DNA from: Schmidtea polychroa
Lineage: Eukaryota
Assembly (NCBI GenBank): GCA_044892525.1
Contig: CM097885.1
Coordinates: 19,594,001 to 19,654,000 of the forward strand
Length of the DNA stretch: 60,000 nucleotides
Reading direction: 5' to 3'
Positions 2,680 to 37,744 of this stretch are shown here, in pieces (positions within the stretch are counted from its first letter, which is position 1; each line of letters begins with the position of its first letter). The position numbers were made by a program, and so were the translations under genes. The notes beneath the pieces are model-generated. The model was not told the origin of the DNA. It searched no databases and saw nothing but the letters and a program-made list of their open reading frames with translations.

Positions 2680-2746
2680 AAAATTTGGTCGCGACGTTGT
2701 AAAAACATACCAATGGGGTGGCCAATACAAAAGTTGAGAACTACTG
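2680..2746. mobile_element. hAT (Charlie/Buster-like) terminus fragment
   Basis: Ends ...AAAAGTTGAGAACTACTG with GGTCGCGA subterminal sequence. No partner end identified. Confidence 0.5.
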
Positions 2747-3028
2747 ATACACCTAAATCCAGAATATATAAGTTTCTATAATCTAAAAAAAATCGATAAA
2801 ATTATATTATAGCAGCACACAAACTTACTTGTGTGCAAAGATTTAATGTTCCGAATGTTAAAAGTTTTATTATAGGAATTGAGAAAGTGACAGAAAAATA
2901 ATTTTACATACAAACACAGCACACATAATATAAAATACACGCAAATTTAATATAGCTTTTTTTATTCCGAAAGTAGAAAGTCATTAACATACTGTTAACA
3001 TATCATTAATTTAAAATTATTAAAATTC

Positions 3029-7229: not shown

Positions 7230-9161
7230 TTATATTTTTTCCGTTATTTTTTTGGACCAAACTTTCTTCCGATCAGTTTGCAGTTGACAATTGTTGATCA
7301 ATGTCAACGCTACCTGCCATTTGATCCGATATTTTTTCTTCATTTCATTTTTGTTTTCAAGATTCATATCAAATTTGATCGGGGTATCTTTTGTCCTCGT
7401 ATGATTTTCTATCAAAATATCAACAAAGCATTTCATGATAGGATTTTGATGGTACTGAAGGGTATAGAGGAACCCAATATAGCTCATGTATCCACTGTCT
7501 AGCCTTTGCAAATAGATTGGCAAAGCATTAAAGTCGATTCTAGGGAAACAAAACACAAAGTTAAACATCCAAATAATCATTCGCTTTATTGAATTGAAAA
7601 ATCCCATCATCACATTCAGAAAGAAGGCACAATGTGCAAAAATCATGAATGCTCTTCGGTTGTTGATTTCCATTAGGGTTCCTCTTTCTTTTACAAATAC
7701 AAATCTAACCAAAAGACTTTGAACAACCATCAAAACAATTGACCCTACTATAACTGGTAACGATTGTAAAAATAACTTTCTGATCCAAGAGTTTTCCAAA
7801 AATATCAAAGGCAGTAAGATGATGCCAATAGTTAAAAATAAAAGGAGAAACATAAAGATTATAACAACACTTATCCCCCACAATATGTAGGCAGCTTGAT
7901 AGCCGCTATACCTTACAAAGCCGATAACCAATCCAGCACTATCTGGAGCCTTTCTCAGTGCAATAATTGATGAAAATCCTTGTTTGCTAATTTTCTGAAA
8001 ATGGAGGCGATAATTCCTCAAAATCAAAAATGATTGAATGACGGAGTTGAGAAGTCCTATTATTATGGCAGCAATCAAACAACCGAGGACAAGATTCGTA
8101 TAAAACAATGTTAAATATTTAAAGGCGTTTATTATCTTGACCTTGGAATATCGAGAATAATTTCCCGAGGCGATTTGGAACGCTGATTTCATAGTTGTAT
8201 TAGTATGTGATATCTTTTTATTTATCAAATAAATAATATTCCAACCTTGGGGGGTAAGGTCAATGATTTGATCCATGAAGATTCGATATGCAAAATAAAT
8301 TCCTACGGATATCCCGATTGCTAGCAAAGGAGGAATCCTGAATCCGGTTATCTTCACATAAATTCTTCGATTGTTTATTATTTTTTCTCTGAATGTTTTC
8401 TTATTTTTTTCTTCTTTCTTCTTTTTTCCAATTAATAATTCTCTAACATATTGCTTACTGCTATTATCAAAACTATTCTTCAACTCAGGGTTTTCACTGT
8501 TGGTCAGTCCATTCATTTTTATATGTTTAATTATTTTCCATAGAAATATCATAATTATTATCGAGTCCATTATTGTGCAAATTGTGTAAATTATCAATTT
8601 CGGAATAATTACCGTGCCCTGGACACATAATATATTAGAAAGGTTATTAAGAATCCCATAAACCAAGAACCCAATAGAATAAAAGAATCCAACAGTATAC
8701 CCTATCAAATGCTTGCAACCAATGCTCGCAAATAATGGATAAGACAATATCGAACAATAAATAACAAAAATTATTTTCAACGTCAATTTTTCAATTGGTG
8801 ACAAATGCGCAAATTTGTCCGATCCAATTATAAATTGATAAATATTTTCAGATAATGATAAAAAGACTACAATATATTCGTGAATATTGTCATTGCTAGA
8901 TATCATGTCCATCGGTATTGCCAAGCCGGGTCTACCATCATAGTTATTAACATAAAATGATACTCGTTTCGTACAGAACGCCAATACCAAGATAGACAAT
9001 ACTAATAGAGAAATAGGTCCAATTTCATAGATGTCACCCTTTTGAATGATGTTTGTACAATTCCTTTTATTCGTTTCGCCATCAAAAGAATGTAAAATTA
9101 TTTTTAGAGTTTCTTCAATTCCCAGCTTTATGTAATTGATAACCTGGAAAAGGTCTGCCAT
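7230..9161 (-). CDS. STRA6-like: STRA6/STRA6-like (RBP-receptor family) multi-pass membrane protein, paralogue 1, 643 aa, intronless
   Basis: Motifs GRPGLAIP, YSGYQAAYILWG, NNRRAF, FFLNVMMG, RID, DSGYMSYIG..HQNP and KWQVALTLINN.QLQ..RK. About 9 hydrophobic segments. Confidence 0.88.
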   Translation of the reverse strand: MADLFQVINYIKLGIEETLKIILHSFDGETNKRNCTNIIQKGDIYEIGPISLLVLSILVLAFCTKRVSFYVNNYDGRPGLAIPMDMISSNDNIHEYIVVFLSLSENIYQFIIGSDKFAHLSPIEKLTLKIIFVIYCSILSYPLFASIGCKHLIGYTVGFFYSIGFLVYGILNNLSNILCVQGTVIIPKLIIYTICTIMDSIIIMIFLWKIIKHIKMNGLTNSENPELKNSFDNSSKQYVRELLIGKKKKEEKNKKTFREKIINNRRIYVKITGFRIPPLLAIGISVGIYFAYRIFMDQIIDLTPQGWNIIYLINKKISHTNTTMKSAFQIASGNYSRYSKVKIINAFKYLTLFYTNLVLGCLIAAIIIGLLNSVIQSFLILRNYRLHFQKISKQGFSSIIALRKAPDSAGLVIGFVRYSGYQAAYILWGISVVIIFMFLLLFLTIGIILLPLIFLENSWIRKLFLQSLPVIVGSIVLMVVQSLLVRFVFVKERGTLMEINNRRAFMIFAHCAFFLNVMMGFFNSIKRMIIWMFNFVFCFPRIDFNALPIYLQRLDSGYMSYIGFLYTLQYHQNPIMKCFVDILIENHTRTKDTPIKFDMNLENKNEMKKKYRIKWQVALTLINNCQLQTDRKKVWSKKITEKI

Positions 9162-9565
9162 TGAATCAAATGTGAAATTTTCAAATGTAAGAATAAATAA
9201 AATATATAAATAAACCCTTTAGTAAAACGAATATAAATGCATAAATCGTATATCAGCGTCTGTACGAAGTTCACTCCTGATACTAAATATTTCGCTTGAT
9301 AAGGCGAGATATTGACGAGAATTGTTGTGATGTTCGAAATATTCATAAACTGAATTTGACGAAAAAACAGAAAATGATAATTATAAATAATAATTATAAG
9401 GTAGCCGCATTATTATCACGTATATTTATTATTTCTAAATACAAATAAATTAAAGTTAACAGAGTTTTCATTTTCTTCTAAGCAAATTATTTATTATTTC
9501 AACTTAGATTCAACCTCAACCCTTTTCACATCAACAAACAACATAAACCATCAAAGCAAAAACAA

Positions 9566-12500
9566 ATGTCATCAAACCAAACAACACCAACCAATATTTC
9601 CCAAACACCCAACAATAACGAAAACACTCACATAATGAAAAACATAAACTATTTTAATATCTCAAACACCAACACAGATACCACACACACACACTATAAA
9701 CTCCGTAATCAACCCAAGAACAAATATCTCCAACTACTTTACCGACGAAATCGGAACACCCACAAAAATGGTTAGAATTTGCCAAACTAACCATAACTCT
9801 ATCCGGAATACAGTCAACAAAGACTTTATGTTCAACCATAATTGCCATAATCAATCCTAGCAAAAAGCTAAAGAAAGCGCGGATAAAATCGATCAAAAAA
9901 ATCTCTGCAACATCCTAACAAACAGGAACAAAATCAACAGGAGGCAAATGCTAGAATCATGTCGACAACAAACCCATAGATTTCCTACGACAACTGAAAC
10001 AAAAACTCGAATATCTACAAAGAAATATTGTTGAGGTCCGTAAATTGAAATAAATTTAAATGAAATTTAGGTTAATAATTTAAATAAAAAGTAAGTGAAG
10101 AAAAAAGACAAATAAAAGCGTGATCATGCACAGAATCGATAGTAAAGGAAAGTGTGATGGAAGCAGTATTAGAAAATGCCAAAAGCAATTACGAAAGGCA
10201 AGAATCCGGAAATACGAGAAAAATCAATAAATGGTAAAATCATCGAAATCGAATGGGGAAAACGGGACAGGTATAGAGTAGCTAATGGTCAAAAAGATGA
10301 TGATTAGGGATTTATCAGAAAATTGTTAGGAAGGGTCGAAAAGCATTCAAATGTGTAAAAACAGAAAATGTTAATTAATTAATTAATTGGCTAATAGAAA
10401 ACCCGAGCTAATGGGAAATCCGAGCCAATGGAGAACCCGAGAGATGAAGGAAACCCGAGCTGGGTAAACAAGAAGAAAAGTAAACAGAAGGAAGATTTGG
10501 GTCAATTAGCATGACACAATGATTAATTGGAAAAGAGCAAGGAGAAGATAGTGCGTGTAGAAAGGCCGGACGGGCCATTAATTATCTTGGTTTGTTGGAC
10601 CATTATGGGTGACAGCCAAAGCAGATACGTGGAAGCAAATGTCAAGTGAAAGATTGGCTCGGCAATAACCATTTTTCATCCCGATTTCGAGGAGTATATA
10701 AGGAAAGGGAAAATCAGAGCAAATCGGCATTTTGCCTCAGGTAGGGTAAGAAGAAACCGAGCTTAGGAAAAGGCGAAAACGAATCTAGGAGATTAGGGAA
10801 AAAGAAGAAATAGAATAAGAATAAAAAGCGTGAAAAAGATCAGATCAAACAGAAAAATAGGAAAACGTTGGTCAAGAGAACCTAAGAAAATTAAAGGTGA
10901 ATATTATCTTTATCAAAGCATCAACACCGAGCGGAGAATCGGTCAAACGTAATTTTGATTATTAATTGTAAAGTGGTGAGAAAAGATTGTGAATTTGTTA
11001 TTTCAATATACGTTGGGTCGTTATTGTTTTGATTTAAAGGACACAAGGAGTCAGAGGAAACCGACTTAAATTAACCAAAACCCAACAATATCACAAACTC
11101 AGGATCAAATGAACTGGTGAAAGAATTCTTCATGTGAGCAATGTCACCAGAAATCAAAAGGATTCTAGCAGTCAGCAGCAACGCTGATGTAGAAACTCTG
11201 GCGGACATAGCGGATAAAATCAATGAAGAAATTTATCCGACAATTTGTAAATAAAATATGAAAACCGTAAACCCTGCGAATACCATAAAACAGAGCAGGA
11301 AAACTACAAACGTCACCATTGATAGCACCCACATTTGCTGATAAAAGTAAATACTTTCATGATGCATTCAAACAATACCGATTTTTAATCGACACTGATT
11401 CCGTAATATCACTATTACCACAACACCAGCACAAAAACTCGAAAAACACAGAAAAATCTCGGACAACAGCCAACGGCACCAGTATAAAAATATTAAGCCA
11501 ACAAACACTTTCTTTAACAATTAATTCGAAAACGTACAACTAGCCATTCACAATAGCTGAAGTTCAACAATCAATAATCGAAGCCGATTTCTTGTCACAT
11601 TACAACATATTTGTAGACTGCCGAAATAAGAAATTAATTACACAACAAACAAAGAAACAGCCAAGACTACAGCAACAACCAATTCGAAAGTAGATATTGG
11701 CATGATTCAAATGAGCACGACAAACACTAAAACAACCAATACAATCGAACATGGTCCAGAGATAACCGCATTACTAAACAAATTCGACAAACTCAGTGAA
11801 CCAGTAACTTTCGACGACAAAGTGGAACACTCTACTGAACATGCAATCATAACCAATGGTAATGAAGTGCATGCAAAGGTCAGACAACTAGATCCACAAA
11901 AAACAAACATTACAAAAGAAAATTTTCAAAGGTTACTAGAAAATAAAATAGTAACACACTCAAACTCAGACTGGTCCTGAGCACTTATGCTCAAACAAAA
12001 GACAAACGTTGAATGGAGAACCTGTGGAGATTATAGAATGCTCAACAAAATCACTGAACCAGACAATTACATAATGCCAATCATAAGAGACATAATTAAT
12101 AGATTAAAAGCCGCCAAAGTCTTCTCAAAAATAGACCTACAAAATACTTATCATCACATTCAATCAGAAAAGAAGATATTAAAAAACAATCGTTACACCA
12201 ATCGGCATGTTCAAATACAACAGAATGTTATTTGGTTTGAGAAATGTAGCCCCAAAATTTCAACTCTTCATGGACCAAACTCTGACAAAAATTAAGAACA
12301 CAATAGCATATATGGACGACATACTGATAGCTAGTCTAAACAAATCTATCCATTTAAGAGATATTGAAAAGACATTCGAAACATTGAACGCAGCAAACCT
12401 GAAAATCAATATCCAGAAATGCGAATATTAAAAAAATGAAATAAACTTTCATGAGCATACTCTGGACGAAAAAGGCACAAAGCCGATCAAAAAAAAATAA

Positions 12501-13430
12501 GCTCCATTCAACAATTTAAGTTTCCAAACACAAACCGAGAACTTAGGGGATTTCTGGGGATGGTAAACTTTTACCACGCTTATATATCAAATTTTATTGA
12601 ACTTGTAGCACCCCTAAACGACTTAAGAAAAACAATAGGAAACATCAAAATAAGCTGGACAGATGAAGCCACAAAAACTTCGAAAAAGCAAAATCATATT
12701 TATCCCAAGCTACATTACTCAGATATCCCAATCCTGAATTAGACTACACTCTCACAACAGACTGTTCTGGTTTAGCAATGGGCGCAACACTGTATCAAGA
12801 CAATGAATACGGTAAACAACCGATTGAGTTCTTCTCAAAGAAACTTAAAATACATCAAACAAGATATTCAACGTTTGATCGAGAAATCCTCGCAATACAT
12901 GAGGCAATGAAACATTTTAAACACCTACTGGAAGCAAGAAAATTCAAAATTTTCTCTGATGACAAGCCTCTAACAAATGCAATACAAATGAAAAACCCAT
13001 CACCTAGACAAATAAGACAATTAAATTATATATCACAATTTAATTGCACTATCAATTTTGAAGCTGGAGCAGCAAACATAGCGGCAGACACATTATTAAG
13101 AACAGAAATTGACATAAACTCAATCGAACTCGGCGAACTGAATGAAAGAGAAAAGATCAAAAACAAACAACAAGAAACACTAAAAGAACTACCAACAAAA
13201 CATAGCCTAAAATCAACGAATGCTGGTACGACGTCAGTAATGAAAACACACCAAGAATACTCTTACCAAAGGAATTCAGAAACAAGTGCATTTCAAAAAT
13301 GCATTAAATCAATCACCCAGGAAACAGAGCTACATACGAAATAATTCACAACAAATATATATGGTCAAATATGAGAAAAGAAATTAAAGATTTCACTAAG
13401 ACTTGCGAATTAACAAAACACCAAAAACGC
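9566..13430 (+). mobile_element. Decayed Ty3/Gypsy LTR-retrotransposon internal region (gag-pol), interrupted by a solo LTR and truncated in integrase
   Basis: gag-like KPIDFLRQL and EIKRILAV..LADIADKI; protease FLIDTDSVISLLP; RT WRTCGDYRMLN, FSKIDL, YMDDILI; RNase H PIEFFSKKL..YSTFDREILAI; integrase Zn-finger start HPG..YIWSNMRKEIKDF..TCE. Many stops and frameshifts. Confidence 0.93.
10029..11087 (+). mobile_element. Solo LTR inserted in the Gypsy gag
   Basis: TGTTG...CAACA termini with 4-bp TSD ATAT (10025-10028 / 11088-11091). Gag similarity resumes on both sides. Confidence 0.85.
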
Positions 13431-13518
13431 CGGTAGTCGAAAAAGCGAATTTATAGCGAAACCAGTAAAATTATAGAAGCCTCGACGAGACGTTGTTGGT
13501 TTCCCCAAATCATCAACC

Positions 13519-15042
13519 TGTCTGGGTTAGTACAAAAACCAAAAAAAGTTATATATAAAATGAAAACATAACAATTATTGATAAAATTAATAAAAGTGCC
13601 AAATTAATTAAAATCAAAAATCAATATTATCGGGTATAATTTAACGCCAAATTGATAGACGAGTTCAGAAATTAAAATTAAAATTTAATAAGGTGTACAC
13701 ATGGAAAGTTATTGTGATAAAGCAAATTAATTAAATTTAATTAATCTGTAATGGAAAACCCGAGCCAATGGGAACCCCGAGTCCATCGGAAACCCTGGCA
13801 CGGAAGGAACCCAATCCGCAATGAGCCCCGATAGATCAGGATTCCCGGGAAATAATTAATTGAAATTCTGTAGATAATTGCTTTTCTCAGAAACAGTATA
13901 AAAAAAGAGCTCAGAAACAAATAAGCCACCATTGGTTCAAAGAAAAAAAAAGCTCAGAAATCAGTTGATCAGCAACGGTCTGACTCCTTTGTGTTCTTTT
14001 TCAAAATCAAGATAACCCAACACAATAATTTCATTCAAGACCAATACAAGTACACTTTTTGATTACACTCTTTATTGAACAATTACAATCTTTAATAACT
14101 CTTTGATCTGCACTTTTCAACACTACAATAAATCTCACGTAGGAATAATCTTCCAAAGGGAGATGGCCCTTTCTGGTACGTTCGATTTTTAAATGGTTTA
14201 ATTTCTACTAACTTTAATATTTCCTTTTCCGCTCTCTTCAAACTTCTATTTTCTTTTCTTCGACCAACTGGCAATTATGTTTCTTTGCTGGTTCCTTTTA
14301 TACTTGACCCGTCAATTGATTTTAATTCGTCAAGCCCTTCGTATCCAATTTCCCGGGCTTCCTCCTATCTCTTTCTCTCATTATTCTAATTTAATTTTCG
14401 TCGGCCGATCTAATTTCCCCTTTGATCGACCATTTAGGCTCTCCCATGACGCTAGGGCTTTCTATTATCTCGGGCTTCCCATTATCTCGGGTTTTTCATT
14501 ATCTCGGGTTTCCCATTAGCTCGGGTTTCCCATTAGCTCGGGCTTCCCATTAGTTAATTAATTTTTAATTAATTTTTGTTTTTTATAATTTATTCTTTCA
14601 AGGGACCCCCCATTGATTTTATTTTATTATATTTGAACTCGTCTCATAATTTGGCATCCGCCCATACCAGTTTCCCCCGAAATTATTCAATTTTTATTTT
14701 TTTGATTATTTTAATTAATCTCTTTGTATTTTATTATTATGAATTTGGTGTTTTCATTGATTTTCACCTCAATTTTGTATCTCTTTTATTGAACCCCAAC
14801 AATAGAAAGAAATCTAGTAATTCGAAAAAAAGTTTAATCCTCGTACCAGAAAAGGTGATTGCTCCTTGGGTTATCTATCTTATCGAGTGAAAATTGTCTT
14901 GAGCGAAAGGTGCAAATAGTGACAAATTGTAATTTGATTGAAATTGAATAAAATTAGCCTGTGTTAGGTTTCGACTTATTTATTTGAATAAGAACACGAG
15001 GAGTCAGAGAGAGAACCGACTTTTAAAAATAAAAACCCAACA
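13519..15042 (+). mobile_element. Solo LTR of the same family containing an oppositely oriented related LTR piece (~13975-14820)
   Basis: TG...ACCCAACA ends with imperfect TSD AACC/CACC. ACCCGAGCCAATGGGAA repeats are forward at 13757 and reversed at 14470-14552. The insert is absent from the homologous site near 26115. Confidence 0.75.
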
Positions 15043-16102
15043 CACCGTTTAAAGTGTTACGTGAGTCTTTTAATTTTGGAAAACTTAATCAATTCATTTA
15101 AGAGTGTGGATAATTATTGATCCAGTGAATTTGTTATATTAAAGAAAATCAGCTTACAATTTGTTGTGTTTTTTGTTGTTTAATCAAAAAGAACGCTCAA
15201 TATCTGGAAACCGAATCCAACACCCAACACATCAAAAGTAAACAGTTATAGTATTTAATAGGATTCTATTTATTCAAGAAATAAAAGTCCATATTTTACA
15301 TGAGTGGTTTTAAAAATCTCTATATGATTAATCTCTAAGTCTGAGTCCATATAGTCCTATGTAAACCTTTATAGCTTCTAAATCTCGGTGTCTTACGCAT
15401 TGTGTAGTGTGCAAGGCTTTTTGTATACCTCTGTATTTTATTAATATTTAACTTTCCTAGATCTAAATAATCTCGAATAATTTCTTTTCAAATACTATTA
15501 TATAACTATTATATTAACTCTTTCAAATGTTTTAAAAATTTATTAAAATCTTCAGACATTCATACTTTTTTTCAATTTATCAAGAAGCTCTGATTAATTT
15601 TCAATGGCTCTTATTTAATTTTTGATACAATCAAATTTTTGGTAATTATAAGAAATATTGATAAAAAGTCGAAAACTAAAAAATGATAACTGAAAATAAA
15701 TTCGAAAATTGCAAATTAATAGGCAATTAAGAAAAATATCTCATGCAAAAATGAATTATAAAGAAAAAAGAAATTAATAGGTATTTTACTTAAAATCAAT
15801 TTGTTTGAATAGTTTATGTAAATATTATACTTTTTGATTAAGTTCCCATTACCGTGATCCCAAATCGCTGTATTTTAGTTCAAAGTTATTTACACATAGT
15901 AGTGATTTTACAGGCGTTCAAGATTTTTAAAGAAGAAAACGTTTATTTAAATTATGGTGAAAACAGTTTGGGAAATCATTTCTTGTTATTTTTTACTTCT
16001 TTCTTAAAAACATTTATGTTATGTAAAAAACAGGTTGTTTTAATATTCGATAATTGTAATATATAAATTTTGATTAAATAAATTTAAAAATCCTGAGCTC
16101 TA

Positions 16103-16640
16103 ATGCTTCCTATTATTCCATATTTAGCTATATTACTACCTTATTACGTCTTTATTTAGAGTAGAGCATCTACAAATTTAGTTGGTGGTATATTTGGGGT
16201 TATTACTGGATATAGATTTATAGAAGAGTTACACACTAAATTACTTTTAAAAGTTTTGCTTATGCTGCATCTACTATATCGGAAAATGAGCAACTAGAAA
16301 CCATAAGAAAAGGTTTCAAACGGTCGATGAGTAAATGTTCCTATGATAGAGACATGTGCACTATTAATCGAAACGTTCGATTAGATCAAGACAGAATAAA
16401 ATTTAATCAGGCATTTATTAGAGATGCTAATAATAAATTTAATTTAGCTGATCCTTCTTATTTGGTCAAATCTGGAATAGAAGCTATTATGGAAGATGAT
16501 GTAACAAAGAGATTTTCATCAAATGAAATGGAAGTTTTGAATTTATTAAGCCGAACTCATTCATATCAACATATAAACCATCAATTGACAATTCTATGGG
16601 TGGTTGGAATTTTACTAGATACGCCATAATGTTGCCATGT
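16103..16640 (+). pseudogene. GPAT3/4-like: 5' fragment of glycerol-3-phosphate acyltransferase 3/4 (GPAT3/GPAT4/AGPAT6-like), disrupted
   Basis: FNLADPSYLVKSGIEAIMEDDVTKRFSSNEMEVLNLLSRTHSYQHINHQLTILWVVGI..RY matches the conserved GPAT3/4 N-terminal block. Frameshifted, no catalytic domain. Confidence 0.8.
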
Positions 16641-16644
16641 TGAA

Positions 16645-16945
16645 TGCGCACTCTTCTGAAAAAAAATGATTTTGAAGACTGGATTTAATTTACGTTCGGA
16701 AGCCAATAAACCCGGTCAATTTATCGGTCAAGTCGAAGTGAATTTTCCACCATTCCAAGCTGGACTGTTAACAAATGATTTTTTCATTGAAGTAAACGAC
16801 TTCAATGTTTGACGAAAACCATCAACAAGTTGTTAAAAGAATTAAAGAAAATTCTTCATCAGTCACTCTGATGATTATCGACGCAGATGGATATAATTAT
16901 TGTAGAGCAAACAATATTGAAATTACGAAAGATGTGAAAGCCAGC
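16645..16945 (+). pseudogene. NHERF-like: NHERF-type PDZ domain fragment, frameshifted
   Basis: GFNLRSEANKPGQFIGQVE...AGLLTNDFFIEVN / ENHQQVVKRIKENSSSVTLMIIDAD. Confidence 0.8.
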
Positions 16946-19591
16946 TCTTAGAGTTCAACATAATGAAACACCACTATCTCGAACTAATTCCCACGAACCA
17001 TTAATGTTAGGTGCAACTGCAGTTACATACAGTCCTTCCAATGACAATAATTCCTCATCAGCCAAGAAGGACCAAACCACAACACACATGTAACATAATT
17101 CTATGACACGTTCTCCTGGGCTTGCACTTTTTCGGGAATTTTATTCACTAAACACAAATCTCAAATGTTCACGTTTCTTAACGGAAGTAGCAATTAGCAA
17201 CCATTTCTATTTTTACTACTACTAGTATGGTTTTTATGTATTAAAAATGAAACATTTCTTTTGTTCTTTAATTTTCATTGTTTTCATACAATTTATTAAA
17301 AATGACCACTAGATGAAATTTTTCTATTGTTAATTGAAGGGTATAACATGAAGTAACAAATGAAAGCACAAAATAGAATTAAATAAACCCTCATTTGGAC
17401 TGAATAGTAATATCAATTATTATGTAATGTTTATTTTTGTATTTTATGTCAGTAGATGAGAAATAAGGATGAATCTTTATGTAAAATTCAGTGACCGATT
17501 TTTATGAATATTTCAATTTATAGCAAACAAAGTATGCTGATTCAAACTGTAATAAAAATTAAAGTTAAAAATTATTTTTTTGTATAAATAAAAAAGCCAC
17601 CCATACTTGGATTTGAACATTCTACCAAACGACATAATCAAAAATCAAAAGTGAAATCACCCACATAACCACCAGCCTCATATGAAATAATAATAATAAT
17701 ACCACTGTATTTATTTGTAGTAAATGATTTATTCGATCAAAAATTTTCGAAATCATTTACCGATTTCAATGAAAGTTCAGACTAAAAAGGCATGCTGATT
17801 CATATTATATTAAAATAATTCACTGATACTGGGATTTGAACCCGTCACCCTACAGATGTATACGGTGTACTAGGCAACAACCTTTAAATAATTAACTGAC
17901 GCGACAATAAAAAGATAAATTTCTAAATACAAAAGTCAAACAAATAAGAAATTAAACCTCCAACATTTCAATTCATAAGGAATACTCAAACAACTGAGCT
18001 ACAACATATAAATAATATATTTAATTTAATTTTAACAACAATAAGAAGATATTATAAGAACTTTTTTCAATTTTCACCACTGATTTCTCTTCGGTTGACA
18101 TTGTATTTATTAAAAATTTTGACTATGAATCAGTAGTATTTTAATAAATACAATAAAAAGATAGAGTTTAACAACAATGCTCTATTATCATAACATTCTT
18201 TGTTTGGAAACGATGCAGTCTTTATTATTGGCTTTGATTCCTAAACTATGTTCGAATCTGTTAATATTAAAATTATTTAGCAAAATATAATGAAAATGGT
18301 ATTAAATTGGAATAAAACTCATTCGATATAGAAATGAACATCTGTTTTGAAATATGACAATAATGAAACTTAATTTCTTTCTGTAACATCATTACGAACT
18401 AATTATAACTAAGAAGCCATGATAATATATCCATTAAAAAACTGTAAATGAAGCTGAACAGAACAAATAAAATAAGTCACTTGTCATAAATAAAACTCTT
18501 CAACTGTAATTCAATACTATAATTGTCCAATTTGCTGAAATTTATATTTCGCTCTTAAGAAATCCATAGATAATGACATATGCGGGAGATGTTATAGCAG
18601 TAGATGGATAGGGCTGCTAACTCATTAACCCCCGATGAGGATTTTTTCTCTAAAATTCCTGGTATTTTTATGTTGTATCATATATTTCATAGTATCATAT
18701 GTTTCAACAGATTTGGATTGAATATGCTCTTTCTAAATTAGCTGAGAAATTTGACTGTAACATGACTTAATTTACAAAATATATATTATATGTCAGAATG
18801 CAAAACTTTTTCACAAATTTGCTGTAATTGGTTCAGACTCAATTTATATTTTATCTGTTAATTCTTTATTCAAAATTTTGACTAGGCCAAAATTACTTGG
18901 GCCATTTGGATATTTCTTTTCACCAGTTTTGATTTATAAATCTTGCCAAAATAATTTATTCTCGATTTGATATATGGACCAAATTCAATAACTCAAATAA
19001 TACTAAAATAAGAAGTGTAACATTGGAAGATCCTCTCCGATTGGTATGGAGAGGCATAAAAATAACTATATAAACCACAATTTTCCTTAGTCAAATAGCC
19101 CAAAAATTGTAAGCTAAGAAGAGTTGCAAATTCAGTAATTGATATTGCAATATAATTTCGAGCATACAAAATTATATAACCGAGCTCAGGTACTAGCAGA
19201 AGGAACATTTTATGAAAAATAAAGAAAACCATTGTATAATTTTTATAAAATGCGATTTTATTTTGTGTACATAATTGTTATTATTTAATAAAGTTTTTTG
19301 AACCAGTTATTTTCTTATTTATATAGGAAGAATCAGGTTGAGATTCCGAGAACCTCAACAATAATGTTAATAATAAATGTAATATTAATGATGATGATGC
19401 TATTTAGTAGAACTTGTTTTCTCAAATAGTATTTTCCTATAATTATGGTTCCTTATTAATTTTAATTCATAATTTTAGGGTATCAAGATAAGTTGCAAAA
19501 ATCAAATCGACTCACTCAAATAATATAAAATACATTGTATTTCCAATTTCCAGACTTAACTAGTAATTGGATGGGGGCATTTTCCTATAGT

Positions 19592-20637: not shown

Positions 20638-23600
20638 CAGGCCCGACGCTAGAGTATTTGGCGCCCTAGGCAAACTAAAAAAATGGCGCCTCTAGTCTAG
20701 AAACAAACCCAATAATTAAAGAAGTAAATGAAAATAAAATAACTATACTTCATTTATTTATTACACAAAAATATATATAAAAACAAAAACCATTTAAAAT
20801 TTAATTTTTCGTGCTTTTAGTTTAGCGAAATCTTCAAGCAGCAACTTCGTATCTATATCACGCGCCATTTCGTGTTCAATCGACAATATTGCTAATCCCA
20901 CAAGCCGTTCTTGTGACATTGTAGATCTTATATATGTTTTGATCTGTTTAAGCTTCGAAAAGCTTCGTTCACCGCTTGCCACAGAAACTGGTAGGGTTAA
21001 TAAAATTCGCAAAGCAACAAATATATTTGGAACGCTGTCCACTATATTATTTTTACAAATATAATTAAGTACATCTTCCGGCAATAAGTTTTTTGGAATA
21101 TGTCTAGCTATAAATATCAATTCGTTCAATAAATCTGTACCATCAATATCTTTAGAATCATCGTGCCGTAAAAAATTTTCCAGTTTAAGACAATCCTCTA
21201 ATATTTTCTTTGACGAAATATATTGCAAATTATGTATGTTGTATAGAAATCCAAATGTTGAATTTATCGTTGACATTTGGGTGAATCTTTGCTCAACAGA
21301 TTTTAAAGCTCTATCCAAAACTGCGAAGTAAAAGCTGATCTTAAATTTTTCTTTTGGGTTCTGAATGGGCTCATCGTTGGCTTCATATTCGAACTGTTTT
21401 TTTTGTTTTCTGATACGCTGAGTTTGTTTAAAGATTGGGGAAATTTCTGATTCTTCAGCAAGTTCTCGCGCATCTACCAATATTCTTTCAAAACCTTCAT
21501 CATTTCGGGAGTTGAATAGAAATTTTTTGGTATCTTCTAGTAGCTTCATAGCATCTTGAATATTAATTTTCTCAGATTGAAGTTGTTTGCTTGTAATATT
21601 TATGTTGAAAAGAATATCATACCAGATAATAACAGAAACTACAAACTCGAAATTCGAAATAGCTTTAGCAAGGCCCTGTGCTTCTATACGTGAAGTATTA
21701 CCAGAAACTCCTGTTTGAGAAGTATCTTGAAAAATATCAATAAGTGCAGCAATAACTTTACTTAGCTGATAGCGTAGAGGTTTAAGGGCATCGATTCGGC
21801 TCTCCCATCTTGTATCGCTCAATGGCTTCACTGTCAAGTTTGAAGCATGACGTTTTAAAACTTCCCATCGACGTGTTGAAGCGGCAAAATAGACATATAT
21901 TCGTTGCACTAACATAAAAAATGATGTAGCATCTAAACAACAGCTTACAGCGTCATTAACAACCAGATTCAAAGAATGCGCAGAACAAGGAACAAATAGT
22001 GCTCGTGGATTTAGATTCAGAATTCGCCGTTGCACGCCATTTTCTTTGCCTTTCATATTGCTACCATTATCGTATCCTTGGCCACGCAAGTTCTCAATAG
22101 GTAATGACATATCTGCTAACATCTGAACGATTTCATCGGTCATACCAGCACCAGTTGTATCTGTTAGTTTCACAAATCCCAAAAAATGTTCTCTTATGCA
22201 TATGGGATCTAAATCACAATTTTCTGTATTTGTATGGACAAAACGAATAATCAACGTCATTTGTTCAGTATGGCTAACGTCTGGTGTGCAATCCAGGATT
22301 ATTGAAAAATATTTAGCAATGGAAATCGATTTTAAAATTTTTGTTTTAATACTCTTAGATAAAAGTTGTATTAACTCATTCTGAATATCTTTTCCCAAAT
22401 AATGAACTTGTGTTTCATTGTTCTTTATTCTGCGAAGATGCTCACCCATAATTGGATCAAAAGAGGCCAAATATTCTACAAAGCTAAGGAAGTTTCCATT
22501 TCCAGGAGAATACAATTTTTCATTGCTTCCGCGAAATGCAATATTTTGCGTAGCAAGCACTTTAACTAGACCTATAAGACGCTCTAAGACTTGTTGCCAG
22601 TGTCTCTCTTCTTGTTTTATGAGACGCAAATTATCCTGGTCAATAGTTTTATTCTTTTTTAAACGCAATTCTAGCTCCTTCCAAGTTTGAAAATTAATTA
22701 AATGATCCTTATTTTTCTCATGTCTTTCTAAAATTACAGACATATTTTTCCAATCGCTTGATCCTTTATCGGAGAGATGTATTACACGCTGGTTATTATT
22801 AAAAATTTTGCAACAAAAGCAGAAAGCCGAATTAGTTGTTTTGGAATACTGTAGCCAATGACGCCGCATTTCTTCTCCATTTGCAAGTCTCCTTCTATAA
22901 AAATTCATTGAAAATTTTCTATGGCTCTCATTTTGAGGAAAATCAAATTCTTCAATTTGTTCTGGTCCGTGTTCAACCAAAATTTGCCTCAAACGGCCAG
23001 AACGTAAGTCATGTGAATTTAACCAAGTTGCCGGATCACTATAATCAAGACTCGAATTTACGCTTTCTAATATTTCCAAAGTTTCATTAATTAAAATTTC
23101 TTCAGTGTCTTCTATAGTTTCTAATACAATTTCTTCTATAGGTTCTTCAACAGTTTCTTCAATTGTTTCAACTTCAGTTTCTTCTATAGTTTCTTCCACA
23201 TTCGTATGTGGAAACTCAGTCAAAATAGGCACCTCTGCATTTCTAGTTGTAGAGTTCCTATCCATTTGCTCTTCCAAATTGCAGTATACTTGTTTTCTCG
23301 GAGTCATTTCATTTCGATTTTTATCTTGTGATTGTTGACGACAAATATATTTCAGAAAAGCACCTTCTTGCTTTTTTTCTTCATTTTTCTTTTCAGCTTT
23401 ACGTTTTCTATTTTGTGCGCCAGATAATTTTTTTCTATCTGCCATTATGCTACCTCAAGTAAAAATTAATAGAATATAATAGATTTAATAATAGGTGTAG
23501 AAAAATCCAATATAAATTAAATTACTGTGTTGTATATATGTAAAAATTATACTGGAAGTACGACCGAAATTATATATACTTTAAATAAAAAAAATTTGAG

Positions 23601-23920
23601 CCCTGCACTAATTAAATTTTATTTTTTTTTCACTTTCTGTTTATTTATTTTTTAACTTTTTTAACATTTACTTTAGTCTTTTAAAACTTTACTGCATGTG
23701 ACTTTATTCTTTTAAAATAAAACTAAAAATTATTGCGTAATTTAAAAAAATTTCAGAGCATGCTATATGCTAAATTTTTTTTAAAACCGCTTTCCAGTTA
23801 ACTTTTTTGAACTTGCAAAATATTTTTTTAAATCGATTTTCCGTTGTATTTTTTTAAATTTTAAAAGAAATAAGTAATCGGTATCGGACTAAAACAACGA
23901 TGGAATTACATGTTTTACGT

Positions 23921-23957
<37 letters not shown>

Positions 23958-24107
23958 AATTCATACATATGTATATATCAATATAAAGATAGAAAGTTTA
24001 TAAAATATTTAATTTACTTGATAAAAAAAGCAGAACTATTTGGCGCCCGCTTGTAAATCGGCGCCCTAGGCTGCTGCCGACGTCGCCTATGCCTAAAACC
24101 GGGCCTG
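20638..24107 (-). mobile_element. Full-length hAT DNA transposon (Tip100/ZMYM1-like group), apparently autonomous
   Basis: TIR CAGGCCCG / CGGGCCTG, perfect 8-bp TSD AATGTTAA (20630-20637 / 24108-24115), GGCGCCC(TAGG) subterminal repeats at both ends, and an intact ORF. Confidence 0.95.
20794..23445 (-). CDS. hAT transposase, 883 aa (TTF-type zinc finger, DUF4371-like region, hAT dimerisation domain)
   Basis: WLQYS...AFCFCC, LDCTPDVSH (D), YDNGSNM (D), CSAHSLNL (CxxH), TRWESR and SVASGERSFSKLK (E). Confidence 0.95.
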   Translation of the reverse strand: MADRKKLSGAQNRKRKAEKKNEEKKQEGAFLKYICRQQSQDKNRNEMTPRKQVYCNLEEQMDRNSTTRNAEVPILTEFPHTNVEETIEETEVETIEETVEEPIEEIVLETIEDTEEILINETLEILESVNSSLDYSDPATWLNSHDLRSGRLRQILVEHGPEQIEEFDFPQNESHRKFSMNFYRRRLANGEEMRRHWLQYSKTTNSAFCFCCKIFNNNQRVIHLSDKGSSDWKNMSVILERHEKNKDHLINFQTWKELELRLKKNKTIDQDNLRLIKQEERHWQQVLERLIGLVKVLATQNIAFRGSNEKLYSPGNGNFLSFVEYLASFDPIMGEHLRRIKNNETQVHYLGKDIQNELIQLLSKSIKTKILKSISIAKYFSIILDCTPDVSHTEQMTLIIRFVHTNTENCDLDPICIREHFLGFVKLTDTTGAGMTDEIVQMLADMSLPIENLRGQGYDNGSNMKGKENGVQRRILNLNPRALFVPCSAHSLNLVVNDAVSCCLDATSFFMLVQRIYVYFAASTRRWEVLKRHASNLTVKPLSDTRWESRIDALKPLRYQLSKVIAALIDIFQDTSQTGVSGNTSRIEAQGLAKAISNFEFVVSVIIWYDILFNINITSKQLQSEKINIQDAMKLLEDTKKFLFNSRNDEGFERILVDARELAEESEISPIFKQTQRIRKQKKQFEYEANDEPIQNPKEKFKISFYFAVLDRALKSVEQRFTQMSTINSTFGFLYNIHNLQYISSKKILEDCLKLENFLRHDDSKDIDGTDLLNELIFIARHIPKNLLPEDVLNYICKNNIVDSVPNIFVALRILLTLPVSVASGERSFSKLKQIKTYIRSTMSQERLVGLAILSIEHEMARDIDTKLLLEDFAKLKARKIKF

Positions 24108-24463
24108 AATGTTAATAAATACGCGAGACTATATAATTAAAATTTAATAATTAAAACTACAAAAATAGATAATTTTTGGTCGCTAACAGCCGCTTCCATT
24201 AGGAAACCTGAACATTTGACATTTTGGTTTAGCAAATAAAATTAACGAAAAAGTGCAAGCCCAAGAGAACGTGTCGTACAATTATGTTACATGTGTAAAT
24301 AACTTTGAACTAAAATACAGTGATTTGGGATCACGTCAATGGGAACTTAATCAAAAATTTTAATATTTACATAAACTATTCAAACAAATTGATTTTAAGT
24401 AAAATACATATTTTTTCTTATTTTATAAATAATTCATTTTGCTTCATACATTTTACTTAATTA

Positions 24464-24690
24464 CCGTATATTTCGGCGTATAAGGTGACCGTCAGATAAG
24501 ACGAGGTACAAAATTAGAGCAAATTTTTATGATTTATCATATATCGGTTGTAGTAGTATAAATACAACTAGTATAAATACAACTACCTGTACTGTACTAC
24601 TTTCTTTTATATCGGTTGTATAAAACGACCCACAATTTTCAAGGGTGATTTTTTGACTTTAAGGGTCGTCTTATACGCCGAAATATACGG
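24464..24690. mobile_element. MITE of the Tc1/mariner (Tc2/pogo-like) type
   Basis: TIR CCGTATATTTCGGCGTATAAG / CTTATACGCCGAAATATACGG flanked by TA on both sides. Confidence 0.88.
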
Positions 24691-25016
24691 TACCTATTAA
24701 TTTGCAATTTTCGAATTTATTTTCAGTTATCATTTTTTATTTTTCGACTTTTTATCAATATTTCTTATAATTACCAAAAATTTGATTGTATCGAAAATAT
24801 TTGTGTTAAATAGAAAAAACATGGTTTTATAGTCGAAAACACAATGAAATTCTAAATAACAAAATAAGACTCATTGAAAATTAATCAGAGCTTCTTCTTG
24901 ATAAATTGAAAAAAATTATCAATGTCTTTGAAGATTTTATTAAAACATTTGAAAGAGTTGTTTATTTTAGATTATATTAAAGTGTTTAGAAAGAAATTAT
25001 TCGAGATTATTTAGAT

Positions 25017-25675
25017 CAGTGTTTTCCAAACCGGGGTACGCGATGGATTTTTGGCCTTTTCAATCTTCTATTATCTAAATATTAAAAGATAAATAAAAAG
25101 AAATTTATAAATATAACATCGATGCCAGAAGGATTATCATATGCAGAAGAATAAAGCTTATTAGAAATATCTTCAGATGGTTTCTTGACAAATAATCATA
25201 TGAAATGCTCTTTCCCATCATTCTTGTTACACCTACAATCAATATATCCTTCTTTATCAGAAAAGGCCCTGAAATGCATATTTTCTTTTTCAACATCATA
25301 TTCATGTGAAGTTGCTTTTTCCACATTTGTAGATATTAAATCGAAAAAAAGAAATAGGCTTTTAGATGTTGAATCTCATCTAAGATTAAAATTAACCAAC
25401 AGAGAACCAAATTATGATGAATTATTATCTCAGCTTAAGCAATTTCATTCTTCTCATTAATTACAATAAATTAAGTATAGCATTTTTTATTTTACAATAT
25501 TTCAGTTATAAAAGTATTTAATTTTTCATTAATGCTATTAATTTAAAGGTCGTATATTTTAAAAAAAATATTATAAAAAAATTTAATCATTATATAAAAT
25601 TTTAAAGCAAAGGGGTACATTATATAATGCAACTGATCAAGGTGGTACACAGTACCAAAAGTTTGGGAAACATTG
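25017..25675 (+). mobile_element. Non-autonomous hAT (Buster/Charlie-like) element retaining the transposase C-terminus
   Basis: TIR CAGTGTTTTCCAAAC / GTTTGGGAAACATTG with perfect 8-bp TSD ATTTAGAT. ORF 25185-25460 reads FSTSYSCEVAFS..IKSKKRNRLLDVE..LRL...QFHSSH. Confidence 0.9.
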
Positions 25676-26689
25676 ATTTAGATCTAGGAAAGTTAAATAT
25701 TAATAAATTGGAGAGGTATACAAAAAGCCTCGCATATCATACAATGCGTAAGACACCGAGGTTTAGAATCTATAAAGATTCACATAATGATATAAGGAGT
25801 CAAACTTATATTAGTCATATAGAGAATGTTAAAACCAATCTTTCAAAATATGGACCTTTATTTCTTGAACGAATAGAAGCTTATTACATACTATCACTGT
25901 TTACCTTTGATATGTTTGGTGTTATTAATAAATGTTCTAGTAGGATTTGGTTTCCAGATATTGAGCGTTCTTTTTGATTAAACAACAAGAAACACAACAA
26001 TTAGTAAGTTGATTTTCTTTAATATAACAAATTCACTGGATCAGCCATTATCCACACTCTTAAATGAATTGGGTTAGTTTTCCAACATTAAATTACTCAC
26101 GTAACACTTCGAACGGTTGATGACTTGGTGAAACCAACAATGTCTCGTCCGAGACTTCTGTAATTTTACTGGTTTCGCTATAAATCCTCTCTAATTTTTG
26201 GCTTCTCGCTATTTTTCATTATCCGTTTTATTTTTGTCCCTGTTTTTTTATCATGCATGTAGTAGGCAAGTCAATTATTTACTAGGATTTGAGCAGTGAA
26301 TTACCAATCTAAATTAGCATTCATTTTTTAAACTTTGATCTAATAACGAAAATATTTACCGATCTCTACAAAGATTATATATTTGGATAATATTTGACAT
26401 TTTCGTGTTTCATTAGAAAAAAATAAAGGATTTTAAAAATGTATTTTTAAAATATTTTTCCGGTATAAAATGGGATTCATCTTATCGCTGGAGTCATTTT
26501 ATATTCTAGCTAATACGGTAACTATTTAATTAGTTTATATTTTAATTTTTAGGCCACTGGGTTTGTGTCGATGTTAGTAGATGGATTGGGCACCGCTGGC
26601 ACAGGACACCGCTAGCACAGTACCCCCCTCCCCCCTCCCCCCGTCGGTAAGATTTTCAAAAATATTCTAAGTCTAAAAGTACATTTTTT

Positions 26690-27215
26690 TTCAAGGTCAA
26701 ATTTAAACAAAGACATATGACTCATCAAGGTCATTGAAACAAAGACCATGACTCATAGTATGACTCATCAAATTTTTCAAGGGCATTTAAACAAAGACCA
26801 TGACTCATCATATGACTCATCAAGGTCATTTTCAAGGTCATATGACTCATACTAAGACTCATCAAGGTCAAAAAAATTTCTCAAGGTCATTTTAACAAAG
26901 ACCGTGACTCATCAAGGTCATTTTCAAGGTCATATGACTCATACTATGACTCATCAAGGTCATTGAAACAAAGGCCATGACTCATGATATGACTCATCAA
27001 GGTCATTCTCAAGGTCATATGACTCATAATATGACTCATCAAGGTCATTCTCAAGGTCATATGACTCATCCGATGACTCATCAAAATTTTCAAGGTCATT
27101 TTCAAGGTCATCTGAGTCATCCTATGACTCATCAAGGCCATTTTCAAGGTCACATGACTAATCCAAGGTCATTCCCAAGGTCATATGAGTCATCGCGATG
27201 ACTCATCAAGGTCAT
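26690..27215 (+). repeat. TGACTCA / TCAAGGTCA minisatellite, left arm (mirror at ~39530-40060)
   Basis: Dense irregular array of ATGACTCAT and TCAAGGTCA words. Confidence 0.95.
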
Positions 27216-27349
27216 ATTATTATTTTTAAAAAATATTATTAAGTGTGCTAGCGGTGCCCTACTATTTGGCATGCCAAAAGTTATCGTTCCCATCATTTTA
27301 TTTCATCGTTCGATAGCTTGTTTTGAAGCTTGGTGCAAGACCTTTCGAA

Positions 27350-27575
<226 letters not shown>

Positions 27576-27685
27576 TATTAATCTATATACTCCGAGTCTA
27601 TCCGACAAAAATATTCTGTCCCCCTATGGGTACTGCTCACGCTCAATAACTCGCATTCGATTATTTTATTATTATTCGATTATTA

Positions 27686-28870
27686 TATTATTATTTTTCA
27701 AAATATTATTATTTTCAAGGTCATATTATTATTTTTCAAATTATTATTATTTTCAAGGTCATATTATTATTTTTCAAATTATTATTATTTTCAAGGTCAT
27801 ATTATTATTTTTCAAAATATTATTATTTTCAAGGTCATATTATTATTTTTCAAAATATTATTATTTTCAAGGTCATATTATTATTTTTCAAAATATTATT
27901 ATTTTCAAGGTCATATTATTATTTTTCAAAATATTATTATTTTCAAGGTCATATTATTATTTTTCAAAATATTATTATTTTCAAGGTCATATTATTATTT
28001 TTCAAAATATTATTATTTTCAAGGTCATATTATTATTTTTCAAAATATTATTATTTTCAAGGTCATATTATTATTTTTCAAAATATTATTATTTTCAAGG
28101 TCATATTATTATTTTTCAAAATATTATTATTTTCAAGGTCATATTATTATTTTTCAAAATATTATTATTTTCAAGGTCATATTATTATTTTTTCAAAATA
28201 TTATTATTTTCAAGGTCATATTATTATTTTTCAAAATATTATTATTTTCAAGGTCATATTATTATTTTTCAAAATATTATTATTTTCAAGGTCATATTAT
28301 TATTTTTCAAAATATTATTATTTTCAAGGTCATATTATTATTTTTCAAAATATTATTATTTTCAAGGTCATATTATTATTTTTTCAAAATATTATTATTT
28401 TCAAGGTCATATTATTATTTTTCAAAATATTATTATTTTCAAGGTCATATTATTATTTTTCAAAATATTATTATTTTCAAGGTCATATTATTATTTTTCA
28501 AAATATTATTATTTTCAAGGTCATATTATTATTTTTCAAAATATTATTATTTTCAAGGTCATATTATTATTTTTCAAAATATTATTATTTTCAAGGTCAT
28601 ATTATTATTTTTCAAAATATTATTATTTTCAAGGTCATATTATTATTTTTCAAAATATTATTATTTTCAAGGTTATATTATTATTTTTCAAAATATTATT
28701 ATTTTCAAGGTTATATTATTATTTTTCAAAATATTATTATTTTCAAGGTCATATTATTATTTTTCAAAATATTATTATTTTTCAAAATATTATTATTTTC
28801 AAGGTCATATTATTATTTTTCAAAATATTATTAATTTCAAGGTCATATTATTATTTTCAAGGTCATATTA
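27686..28870 (+). repeat. 38-bp tandem repeat, about 30 copies (left arm)
   Basis: Unit TCAAGGTCATATTATTATTTTTCAAAATATTATTATTT. Period checked at 27791, 27829 and 27867. Confidence 0.95.
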
Positions 28871-29573
28871 TTTTTGTTTTAATTATCGATTATTTAATAA
28901 TTTAATTTTGTTTAAATCGTTGATTATACAATAATATTTTTATTTTTTCTTTTAATTGTAAATTATGTAATAATTAAATTTTGTTTAAATCGTTGATTAT
29001 ATGATAATATGTTTATTTTTGTTTTAATTATCGATTACTTAATAATTTAAAATTGTTTAAATCGTTAATTATATAATAATATTTTTTTTGTTTTAATTAT
29101 TAATTATGTAATAATTTTATTTTTTTAAATTGTTGATTAAATGATAATATTTTGTTTTTGTTTTAATTATCGATTACTTAATAATTTAATATTGTTTAAA
29201 TCGTTAATTATATAATAATATTTTTTTTGTTTTAATTATTAATTATGTAATAATTTTATTTTTTTAAATTGTTGATTTTATGATAATATTTTTATTTTTG
29301 TTTTATTTATCGATTACTTAATAATTTAATATTGTTTAAATGGTTAAATATATAATAATTTTTTTTTGTTTTAATTATCAATTACGTAATAATTTAATTT
29401 TGTTTAAATTGTTGATTTTATGATAATATTTTTATTTTTGTTTAAATTATCGATTATGTAATAATTTAATTTTATTTAAATCGTTGATTATATTTTTTTT
29501 GGTTTATTATCGATTACGTAATAATTTAATTTATCATTATTATTGGGAAAGAACGCCCGCGCGGAAGATTACA

Positions 29574-29674
<101 letters not shown>

Positions 29675-29907
29675 GATTATTATTGCAAATCTTCATAAAA
29701 CTTAATTTCTACGTCAATTTCATGATTTTCAACATTTTCATCATTTGCATATTTTAATAATTTTTAATATTTTCATAATTTTTTCCATTTTCAGTATTTT
29801 CATTATTATTTCAGGAACATTTTAATTAGTTACATGAACATTTACATCAAATATTTTTCAAAGTAATATTTCCGTTCAGTTTTTCAAAGTTCTTCTTCTT
29901 CTTATTC

Positions 29908-29974
<67 letters not shown>

Positions 29975-31116
29975 GATTATTATTGCAAATATTCATGAAA
30001 CTTAATTTCTACGTCAATTTCATAATTTTCACGATTTTCAACATTTTCACGATTTTCAACATTTTCATGATTATTATTTTTTCATTATTATTTTCAAAGA
30101 ATTATTTTCAAAGAATTATTTTCAAAGAATTATTATTATTATTTTTTATTATTATTATTATTTTTATTATTATTTGCAAAGTTCTAATTATTATATTAAT
30201 TTAGAAGTTTCATTATTATTATTTACTTAAATATTCATAAAACTTATTTTCTACGTCAATTACATGATTTTCAACATTTTCATCATTTGCATGAATTTTA
30301 ACAATTTTCTACATTTTCAATATTTTCACGATTTTCAACATTTTCATGATTATTTCAGGAACTATTCATCGAATATTTTTCAAAGTATTATTTTCAAAGA
30401 ATTATTTTCAAATTATTTTCAAAGTTTTTATCAATATTATTATTATTATTATTATTTGCAAAGTTCTTATTATTTTATTTTCGATGTTTTATTATTATTT
30501 ACTTAAATATTCATAAAACTTAATTTCTGCATCAATTTACGATTTTCAATATTTGATGATTATTTTAGGGAACATTTTCATAATGTTTAACGTTTTCATC
30601 CTTTTCAATATTTTCATCATTTTCAACATTTTTAATATTTTCAGGAACATTTTCATAATTTTCAACGTTTTCATGATTTTCAACATTTTCATCATTTCCT
30701 TGAATATTTTAATAATTTTCAACATTTTCATAATTTTCACGATTTTCAATATTTTCATCATTATTTTCTTCAAAATTCTTAGTTTATTTATAAAATATTA
30801 TTATTATCATTTTCAAAATTATTTTCTTATTATTTATTTTAAAGTATATTATTATTTTTATTATTATTATTATATATACTCCTAGTCTATCCGACAAAAT
30901 ATTTTGTCCCCCTATGGGTACTGCTCACACTCAACAGGTTGCAAGGGTACTAGTCATGCTTATTATTATTGTTATACAATATGATGTTATTTAGACATTT
31001 GAAGGTTCAACCATGGTTACAATTTCTACATTTTGAAAACTCTAATTTGATTGGCTATCTCAATTTTTATAAATGTAAAAACAAAAGTAATTTAGTTATT
31101 AAGAAATTTATTACTG

Positions 31117-37662: not shown

Positions 37663-37744
<82 letters not shown>

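Follow-up and report, generated by a model that had tools for sequence, protein, structure and literature searches.

How do pieces of two host genes come to lie fused inside one short insertion? The question is raised by a locus of the planarian Schmidtea polychroa in a stretch of 60,000 nucleotides (GenBank assembly GCA_044892525.1, contig CM097885.1, positions 19,594,001 to 19,654,000, forward strand), called the window here, whose own positions are used throughout and whose base composition is 28% GC. A first-pass annotation, made from the letters alone, had described at 15898-17083 an insertion in which a 5' piece of a GPAT3/4 gene is joined to a NHERF-type PDZ piece. The analysis showed that this insertion is one copy of a multicopy family, very probably mobile, with fixed ends and tens of copies. 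Its cargo very probably passed through an RNA intermediate, and the unit that carries it is, somewhat more likely than not, a solo long terminal repeat (LTR).

An insertion that belongs to a multicopy family

Self-comparison of the window revealed a local inverted duplication around the locus. The flanks of the insertion, 15722-15897 and 17084-17214 (copy A), pair with the adjoining stretches 24465-24291 and 24296-24161 (copy B) at 89% and 82% identity, and the sequence 15898-17083 is missing from copy B (reverse complement of 24161-24465). The segment is thus an insertion relative to the homologous site near 24290, as had been proposed. That "empty site" indeed lacks the insert, but copies A and B are only about 86% identical over six blocks and the site is that of a paralog, not an empty allele. 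ACACAT is present to the left and right of the insert and reflects a real duplication; CACAT occurs once only in the paralog, at 24291-24295 on the reverse strand. Among 200,000 random breakpoint pairs within the window, taken as a chance control, 0.5% shared at least 6 bp and 1.3% at least 5 bp.

Contigs of 4 of the 15 listed public runs were aligned to 15500-17500 at 80% likeness. X1, X2 and X5 are DNA runs and X7 is RNA by guess only; all were used as contigs, and the statements below refer to 24 of 491 loose ends and to the aligned pieces listed, with 1531 further pieces beyond these. In X1 the depth is 90-180 over the left flank, 47-63 in the contigs of the locus itself and 266-3686 inside the insert, with abrupt steps at both ends, 15898 and 17084. 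X2 and X5 have the same shape, the ratios being rough and summed contig depth not being a copy number. Behind 17084, 25 contigs of X1, 20 of X2 and 27 of X5 leave into unlike AT-rich sequence (agreement 0.44-0.45). Deleted forms are common, with joints at 15975-16810, 16483-16680, 16848-17063 and 16938-16979. The GPAT-PDZ joint itself is common to several copies: it is bridged by at least 31 letters on each side in X2 (record 12), X5 (record 21) and X7 (record 27). Further copies of the chimera, which the first-pass annotation had suggested looking for, therefore exist, and its claim that a mobile element captured and shuffled pieces of two host genes is supported by a multicopy unit with fixed ends.

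The ends had to be redrawn. Because other copies depart from the window sequence behind 17084, the last A at this position belongs to the element, whose right end is …CAACA and lies at 17084 rather than 17083. The target-site duplication is therefore CACAT, 5 bp, and not the 6 bp first described. The start AGTAGT is present in this copy, but its first A is probably peculiar to it, because in an X2 contig of another copy (record 10) the alignment starts at 15899 with one unaligned letter at 15898. Left-side aligned pieces start at 15899. The insertion at the present locus was found in a second DNA study as well (X5 record 24, 17046-17339, 11 differences) and so predates those haplotypes. A skip joint from 15891 to 17084 in X1 and X2 was considered as an empty allele or polymorphism and rejected, having the letters of copy B at 4 of the 4 sites listed.

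15044-15892, no strand: left flank, copy A of the local inverted duplication, which continues at 13449-13518 and 17090-17214
15893-15897, no strand: left target-site duplication CACAT, 5 bp, its length set by the right end of the family at 17084
15898-17084, plus strand: the element in full (1187 bp), a solo-LTR-like member of a multicopy family, with depth steps at both edges
15898-15975, plus strand: left terminal segment, in more copies than the adjoining interior (depth; joint from 15975 to 16810 in X2)
15976-16086, plus strand: AT-rich segment, U3-like or GPAT 5' leader, with TATA-like TATATAA at 16060-16066, a weak motif in 83% AT sequence
16087-16642, plus strand: GPAT3/4 mRNA piece, with short 5' leader, ATG at 16103 and exons 1-3 spliced (start coordinate approximate)
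16643-16973, plus strand: NHERF-type PDZ domain and start of the following linker, in frame with GPAT
16974-17084, plus strand: right terminal segment ending CACAACA, the deepest part of the family, either R/U5-like or captured as a third piece, with 41 codons free of stops
17085-17089, no strand: right target-site duplication CACAT, 5 bp
24161-26185, minus strand: copy B of the local inverted duplication, which holds the site without insert and carries insertions of its own

Expressed as single-copy depths, the left end stands at about 18-40 at 15929 against 3-10 at 15976; the interior has 1-11 over the first half of GPAT, then 10-17 at the joint and 13-42 in the PDZ part, and the right end has about 59-60 at 17004. 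Segment 15976-16086 has little cover in the probable RNA run X7. In the same run three contigs cover 16644 (summed depth 34.9), one of them bridging the joint, and most flank bins are without depth; this gives a weak hint, the run being RNA by guess, that family RNA spanning the joint is expressed. AATAAA at 16077 was tried as an LTR poly(A) signal and dropped, since similar letters occur there in an RNA-type contig and AT makes up 83% of the region.

For the right terminal segment, 16974-17084, no protein match was found; a word-based protein search gave 0 of 9 candidates, which is weak evidence, and the Atlas gave no usable match. One RNA-type contig follows the stretch from 16974 to 17044 and continues with 255 other letters, and eight other RNA-type contigs enter this stretch from a different upstream sequence. 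A third gene is one possible source of it; alternatively, the stretch may be a transcribed end that belongs to the element itself.

Capture of two host messages

The GPAT assignment was confirmed by a 125-residue open stretch, 16240-16614, that matches 136 proteins. The best is P0001 (87% identity, E 1.6e-63), followed by flatworm and vertebrate GPATs with the acyltransferase domain PF01553. This domain lies further downstream in 10 of the 11 GPAT matches scanned, P0001 being too short. One cluster among the matches is named GPAT3, and the closest named matches come from the flatworms Trichobilharzia, Opisthorchis and Protopolystoma. The piece represents the N-terminal part only, from the ATG at 16103 to 16642, with two hydrophobic stretches and without the catalytic domain. 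The PDZ piece finds NHERF2/NHERF1 (E 5e-6) as its best PDB matches and also PDZK1/NHERF3 (E 3.5e-5), the latter ranking behind four artefactual repeat-protein matches, which agrees with the NHERF-type assignment. Pfam gave a weak PDZ match (E 0.04) in one of four insert pieces. Word-based searches of longer proteins returned 0 of 88 candidates for the GPAT piece and 0 of 29 for the second half of the PDZ piece, again weak evidence, and the Atlas held no usable match for the GPAT piece. Metagenome and viral contigs yielded no relative of P0001 (130 pattern matches, none confirmed) and no match to a 20-bp motif.

Both pieces lie in the sense orientation and both are decayed, as the first-pass annotation had it. 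The GPAT piece is broken near 16157, 16253 and 16609 and at 16641-16643, and the PDZ piece near 16679 and 16809 and from 16949 onward. Eleven of the 13 listed GPAT differences from RNA-type contig 25 fall in codons that depart from P0001. The present copy is therefore decaying, and is a dead pseudogene.

The evidence for the route of capture is a lost intron. A single-copy GPAT contig of the DNA run X5 (depth 58.8) has 39 extra letters that, with a shared AG at 16351, form a 41-nt GT…AG intron inside a codon. This intron, between 16351 and 16352, is absent from the window copy and from contig 25 (16142-16537). The intron contig and contig 25 have in common a letter at 16320 that is found in no X1 or X2 contig, and of the 13 sites listed, contig 25 has the P0001 state at 12, of which 10 are residue-changing and 2 silent, and departs from it at 1; both contigs therefore represent the parental GPAT. 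The aligned piece of the intron contig, 16261-16351 with coordinates read inclusively, is a 91-nt exon that begins on a codon boundary, which suggests a second lost intron between 16260 and 16261. This site matches intron 1 of vertebrate GPAT4. With one parental intron missing and a second probably lost, the check that had been proposed points to capture via RNA, and the label "Pack-type", in its usual sense of DNA capture, is not supported. At 16087-16155 the same GPAT 5' sequence seems to stand at both the start and the end of one contig of the probable RNA run (depth about 199), as though the parental message held a tandemly repeated, or circular, unit of about 92 nt.

How the two pieces were joined is less certain. 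The frame 16611-16682 passes from the GPAT end directly into the PDZ start; in this copy a single stop codon interrupts it at the joint. Exactly at the R of an LPxR motif, 17 of the 136 GPAT matches come to an end, P0001 included, as do 39 of 135 alignments to P0002. Since many partial gene calls across taxa end at this one residue, it probably marks a conserved exon end, with which the end of the GPAT piece coincides. The joint, being in frame and at a GPAT exon end, suggests that exon 3 was spliced onto the PDZ piece, and splicing is its probable origin. A template switch at microhomology is less probable but a serious contender: no NHERF acceptor was observed, and at the joint the GPAT and NHERF of flatworms are both R-L-like. 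Template switches near exon junctions have been reported by Tan et al. 2016 (PMC5131818).

The probable parental NHERF RNA contig, contig 30, aligns over 16699-16973 and then diverges. Differences from the respective RNA contigs amount to 25 of 279 sites in the PDZ part and 24 of 521 in the GPAT part (Fisher p 0.02), a comparison that assumes contig 30 to be the parental NHERF message. Because the PDZ part is both deeper and further from its RNA contig, the data fit an order in which PDZ would have been captured first and GPAT later.

The class of the element

The ends of Gypsy LTRs follow a TGTNR pattern (PMC2836005). The right end of the insert, CACAACA, fits it directly and the left end fits from base 2, base 1 being A. 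As an inverted pair the ends match at 8 of 11 terminal bases; beyond these no longer inverted or direct terminal repeat was found in the element, and none in direct orientation between its first and last 200 bp (best local score 19). A working rule recognizes solo LTRs by such ends, a 4-6 bp duplication and no inner repeat (PMC8969392); the present site has the 5-bp CACAT, and the family is dispersed, with fixed ends and no inner terminal repeat. Together these features lead to the solo-LTR reading. That the element belongs to the LTR class is probable. The fuller statement, that it is a solo LTR from a family of LTR retrotransposons that are non-autonomous or cargo-bearing, and that this LTR is largely spliced host mRNA, we favour with slightly less confidence. 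If it is a solo LTR, the cargo lies inside the LTR. Both element ends are deeper than the GPAT interior, as expected where both ends are needed.

Solo LTRs occur in the window, and this was counted for the LTR reading of the insert. A second one, 850 bp away at 13519-15042 in the same duplicated flank, runs TGTCTGGGTT…AACCCAACA with a 4-bp duplication with one mismatch. Its right end resembles the LTR end at about 11087, ahead of a decayed gypsy-type pol region (RNase H) at 11630-13344.

The proposed mechanism begins with a family that would first have acquired the NHERF PDZ piece. A PDZ-bearing copy lying in or downstream of GPAT3/4 would then have trapped exons 1-3, a transcript from the GPAT promoter splicing into that copy so that the exon-3 donor was joined in frame onto PDZ. 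Reverse transcription of this chimeric RNA from the primer site would copy PDZ, then the GPAT exons to the 5' end of the message, and would then jump to the left part of the element. This strand transfer would put the cargo between the two ends of the LTR, and the new LTR so formed would contain the GPAT 5' end in the sense direction. Such a route would explain why the GPAT piece has a start codon, lacks introns and stops at a donor. An integrase would then have inserted it, with short duplications, at ten or more sites, and recombination between LTRs would have left the present solo copy, since decayed.

Several points weigh against the solo LTR and the route proposed for it. Neither a paired LTR nor a primer-binding site, a polypurine tract or an autonomous partner came to light, and no genome-wide search was made. 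The first base is A here, the family's first base being known only to differ. Depth at the right end is about 1.5-3 times that at the left, a difference that non-LTR 5' truncation would also give. No left-end loose ends occur among the 24 of 491 listed, and varied left flanks are deduced from depth. The target-site duplication was read at the present site only and not at other copies, and the parental intron was seen in one run only (X5) among the rows listed. Within the window no second copy of the unit and no other TG…CA element with the same ends was found, and an Rfam scan of 15700-17300 gave 0 matches, with no sign of a tRNA, 5S or ribozyme module.

Among the alternatives the best surviving, though unlikely, is a non-LTR composite retroposon of the SVA_F1 type. 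SVA elements are driven by long interspersed nuclear elements (LINEs) and have A-tails and variable duplications. In such a unit the 110-bp right segment would be the tail for a LINE reverse transcriptase, the exons would be added by splicing, and insertion would take place through target-primed reverse transcription. The right end is the deepest part of the family and ends in a CAA-like run, intron loss and a joint at an exon end fit equally well, and SVA subfamilies have been founded by exon capture through splicing (PMC6139936). The first 78 bp are, however, deeper than the sequence behind them, the opposite of 5' truncation, and in some copies are joined directly to the PDZ part (15975 to 16810). 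The left edge is sharp, the ends form an imperfect inverted pair, and there is no A-tail: as the first-pass annotation had stated, poly(A) is lacking, the sole A-run of at least 8 being internal, at 16659.

A little more doubtful still is a DNA transposon, itself non-autonomous, whose ends are of the integrase type (Ginger-like) or are inverted repeats now worn, and which took up a ready chimeric retrocopy and moved by cut-and-paste. It would account for the retention of both ends amid many internal deletions; Ginger and TDD elements have TG…CA ends with 4-5 bp duplications, and GingerRoot carries gene fragments. The inverted repeats of Ginger are, however, 40-270 bp and those of GingerRoot 100-150 bp, compared with 8 of 11 terminal bases at best in the insert, and a separate prior retroposition step would be required.

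It is improbable that the parental GPAT and NHERF genes are neighbours (or their RNAs trans-spliced) and that one read-through spliced RNA was captured whole by the element. Such a message would agree with an in-frame joint that lies at a GPAT exon end and is bridged by a probable RNA contig (record 27); on the other side, compared with the GPAT part, the PDZ part has greater depth and has diverged more from its RNA contig, pointing to two captures, and some copies (joint 15975-16810) have PDZ without GPAT.

The first-pass annotation had seen a hint of a Maverick-type integrase, and a Maverick/Polinton product is now very improbable. This copy begins AGTAG, the flanks taken alone permit a 6-bp reading, and a Maverick-type element is present in the window. 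The family end at 17084 nevertheless gives a 5-bp duplication with a right end CAACA, the first A is not in record 10, and the insert lacks CTACT, as had been noted, and any long inverted repeat. Its likeness to the AGTAG…CTACT element of the window, which looks quite different, ends after 5 bases. Neither a plain segmental copy nor a deletion in copy B between chance repeats can be upheld: copy B is only a paralog with its own insertions and deletions, but the insert shows intron loss and tens of contigs share its exact right end with other flanks.

A bolder proposal, which we regard as unlikely, is that the LTR family acts as a stepwise exon trap. The LTR would consist mostly of spliced mRNA from two or three host genes; in some copies a frame encoding a membrane-anchored PDZ protein (the hydrophobic GPAT N-terminus followed by NHERF PDZ) would still be open and transcribed, and each insertion or solo LTR would drop such a cassette at a new site. 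A stranger version is a unit with integrase-type ends that needs neither paired LTRs nor inverted repeats.

Known systems and neighbouring elements

A close parallel is found in LTR-mediated retrocopies of animals, which are likewise partial, intron-less mRNA pieces without an A-tail and in sense orientation, and which can unite two parental genes in one unit (CG4799/CG11924 in BATUMI) and be re-copied as non-autonomous elements (Tan et al. 2016, PMC5131818). Their cargo replaces internal sequence between two LTRs and their joints are template switches, whereas the insert has no LTR pair, carries its cargo between the ends of one unit and has its gene-gene joint at an exon end. Foreign sequence within an LTR, with duplications of 4-5 bp, is known from Cassandra, Ajax and Helenus, terminal-repeat retrotransposons in miniature (PMC10886601), and from BARE-2 (PMC13317346). 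The cargo of these elements is 5S rRNA, tRNA or another retrotransposon and not a spliced two-gene mRNA, and paired LTRs, primer site and polypurine tract are established for them but not for the insert. SVA_F1 (MAST2), the chimpanzee STK40-SVA (PMC6139936) and the gibbon PVA (PMC4432496) are subfamilies founded by splicing host exons to an element and then amplified; the insert differs in its integrase-type ends and lack of an A-tail.

Pack-TIRs and Pack-MULEs, such as Ssk-FB4 (PMC8277862), are also multicopy mobile units with host gene pieces that are potentially transcribed, but they are described there as capturing DNA between inverted repeats, unlike the insert, which has lost introns and has no inverted repeat. 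The likeness to Maverick/Polinton elements is confined to the first five bases of this copy; by the criteria in PMC8969392 and PMC6839031, the insert differs in having no long inverted repeat, no CTACT and a duplication of 5 rather than 6 bp. The literature compared also includes PMC11410931. No case of host mRNA inside an LTR, nor of planarian retrocopies of this kind, was found in the literature searched, the coverage of which was partial; a curated entry for this family may exist.

Two-gene shuffling through the RNA of LTR elements is thus known from flies and mice, with the cargo between the LTRs. The insert appears to be an unusual version of it, and what seems to be new is the combination: spliced protein-coding mRNA of two genes forming most of an LTR-like unit. 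If the LTR reading is true, each insertion would make two copies of a cargo lying inside the LTR, this cargo would outlast the formation of a solo LTR, and host coding pieces would spread as seemingly LTR-less repeats that are missed by standard searches for retrocopies and Pack elements. If the in-frame joint was made by splicing, the LTR route would gain exon trapping, which is known in primate SVAs. Several stages are represented among the tens of copies of the family (PDZ alone, GPAT with PDZ, and forms with deletions), and the order of events can be tested in the assembly.

Other repeats surround the locus. The 13.6-kb near-palindromic element at 26576-40176 starts AGTAGATGG, ends CCATCTACT and is flanked by a 6-bp duplication, GATGTT. 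It has a real Maverick/Polinton-type end, 9.5 kb from the insert, and serves as a control within the window. Both arms contain tandem arrays, and in both an open frame of 179 codons, identical between them, encodes a RING finger (31214-31753 and 35884-36423; PF13920, E 4e-07). A hAT element at 20638-24107, with an 8-bp duplication AATGTTAA and an open 886-codon transposase frame on the minus strand (20794-23454), sits between the arms of the inverted duplication. The insertions of copy B, at 24466-24692 and 25018-25675, are a small inverted-repeat element and a hAT fragment. Right of the locus, 17242-17442 is a separate repeat of very high depth (up to 30,034 in X1). Finally, the window has a cluster of related long intronless open frames at 7230-9218, 41395-43356, 49419-51401 and 59066-59997, of which the first is STRA6-like (PF14752, E 4e-77) and the other three are similar at the DNA level (64-82%).

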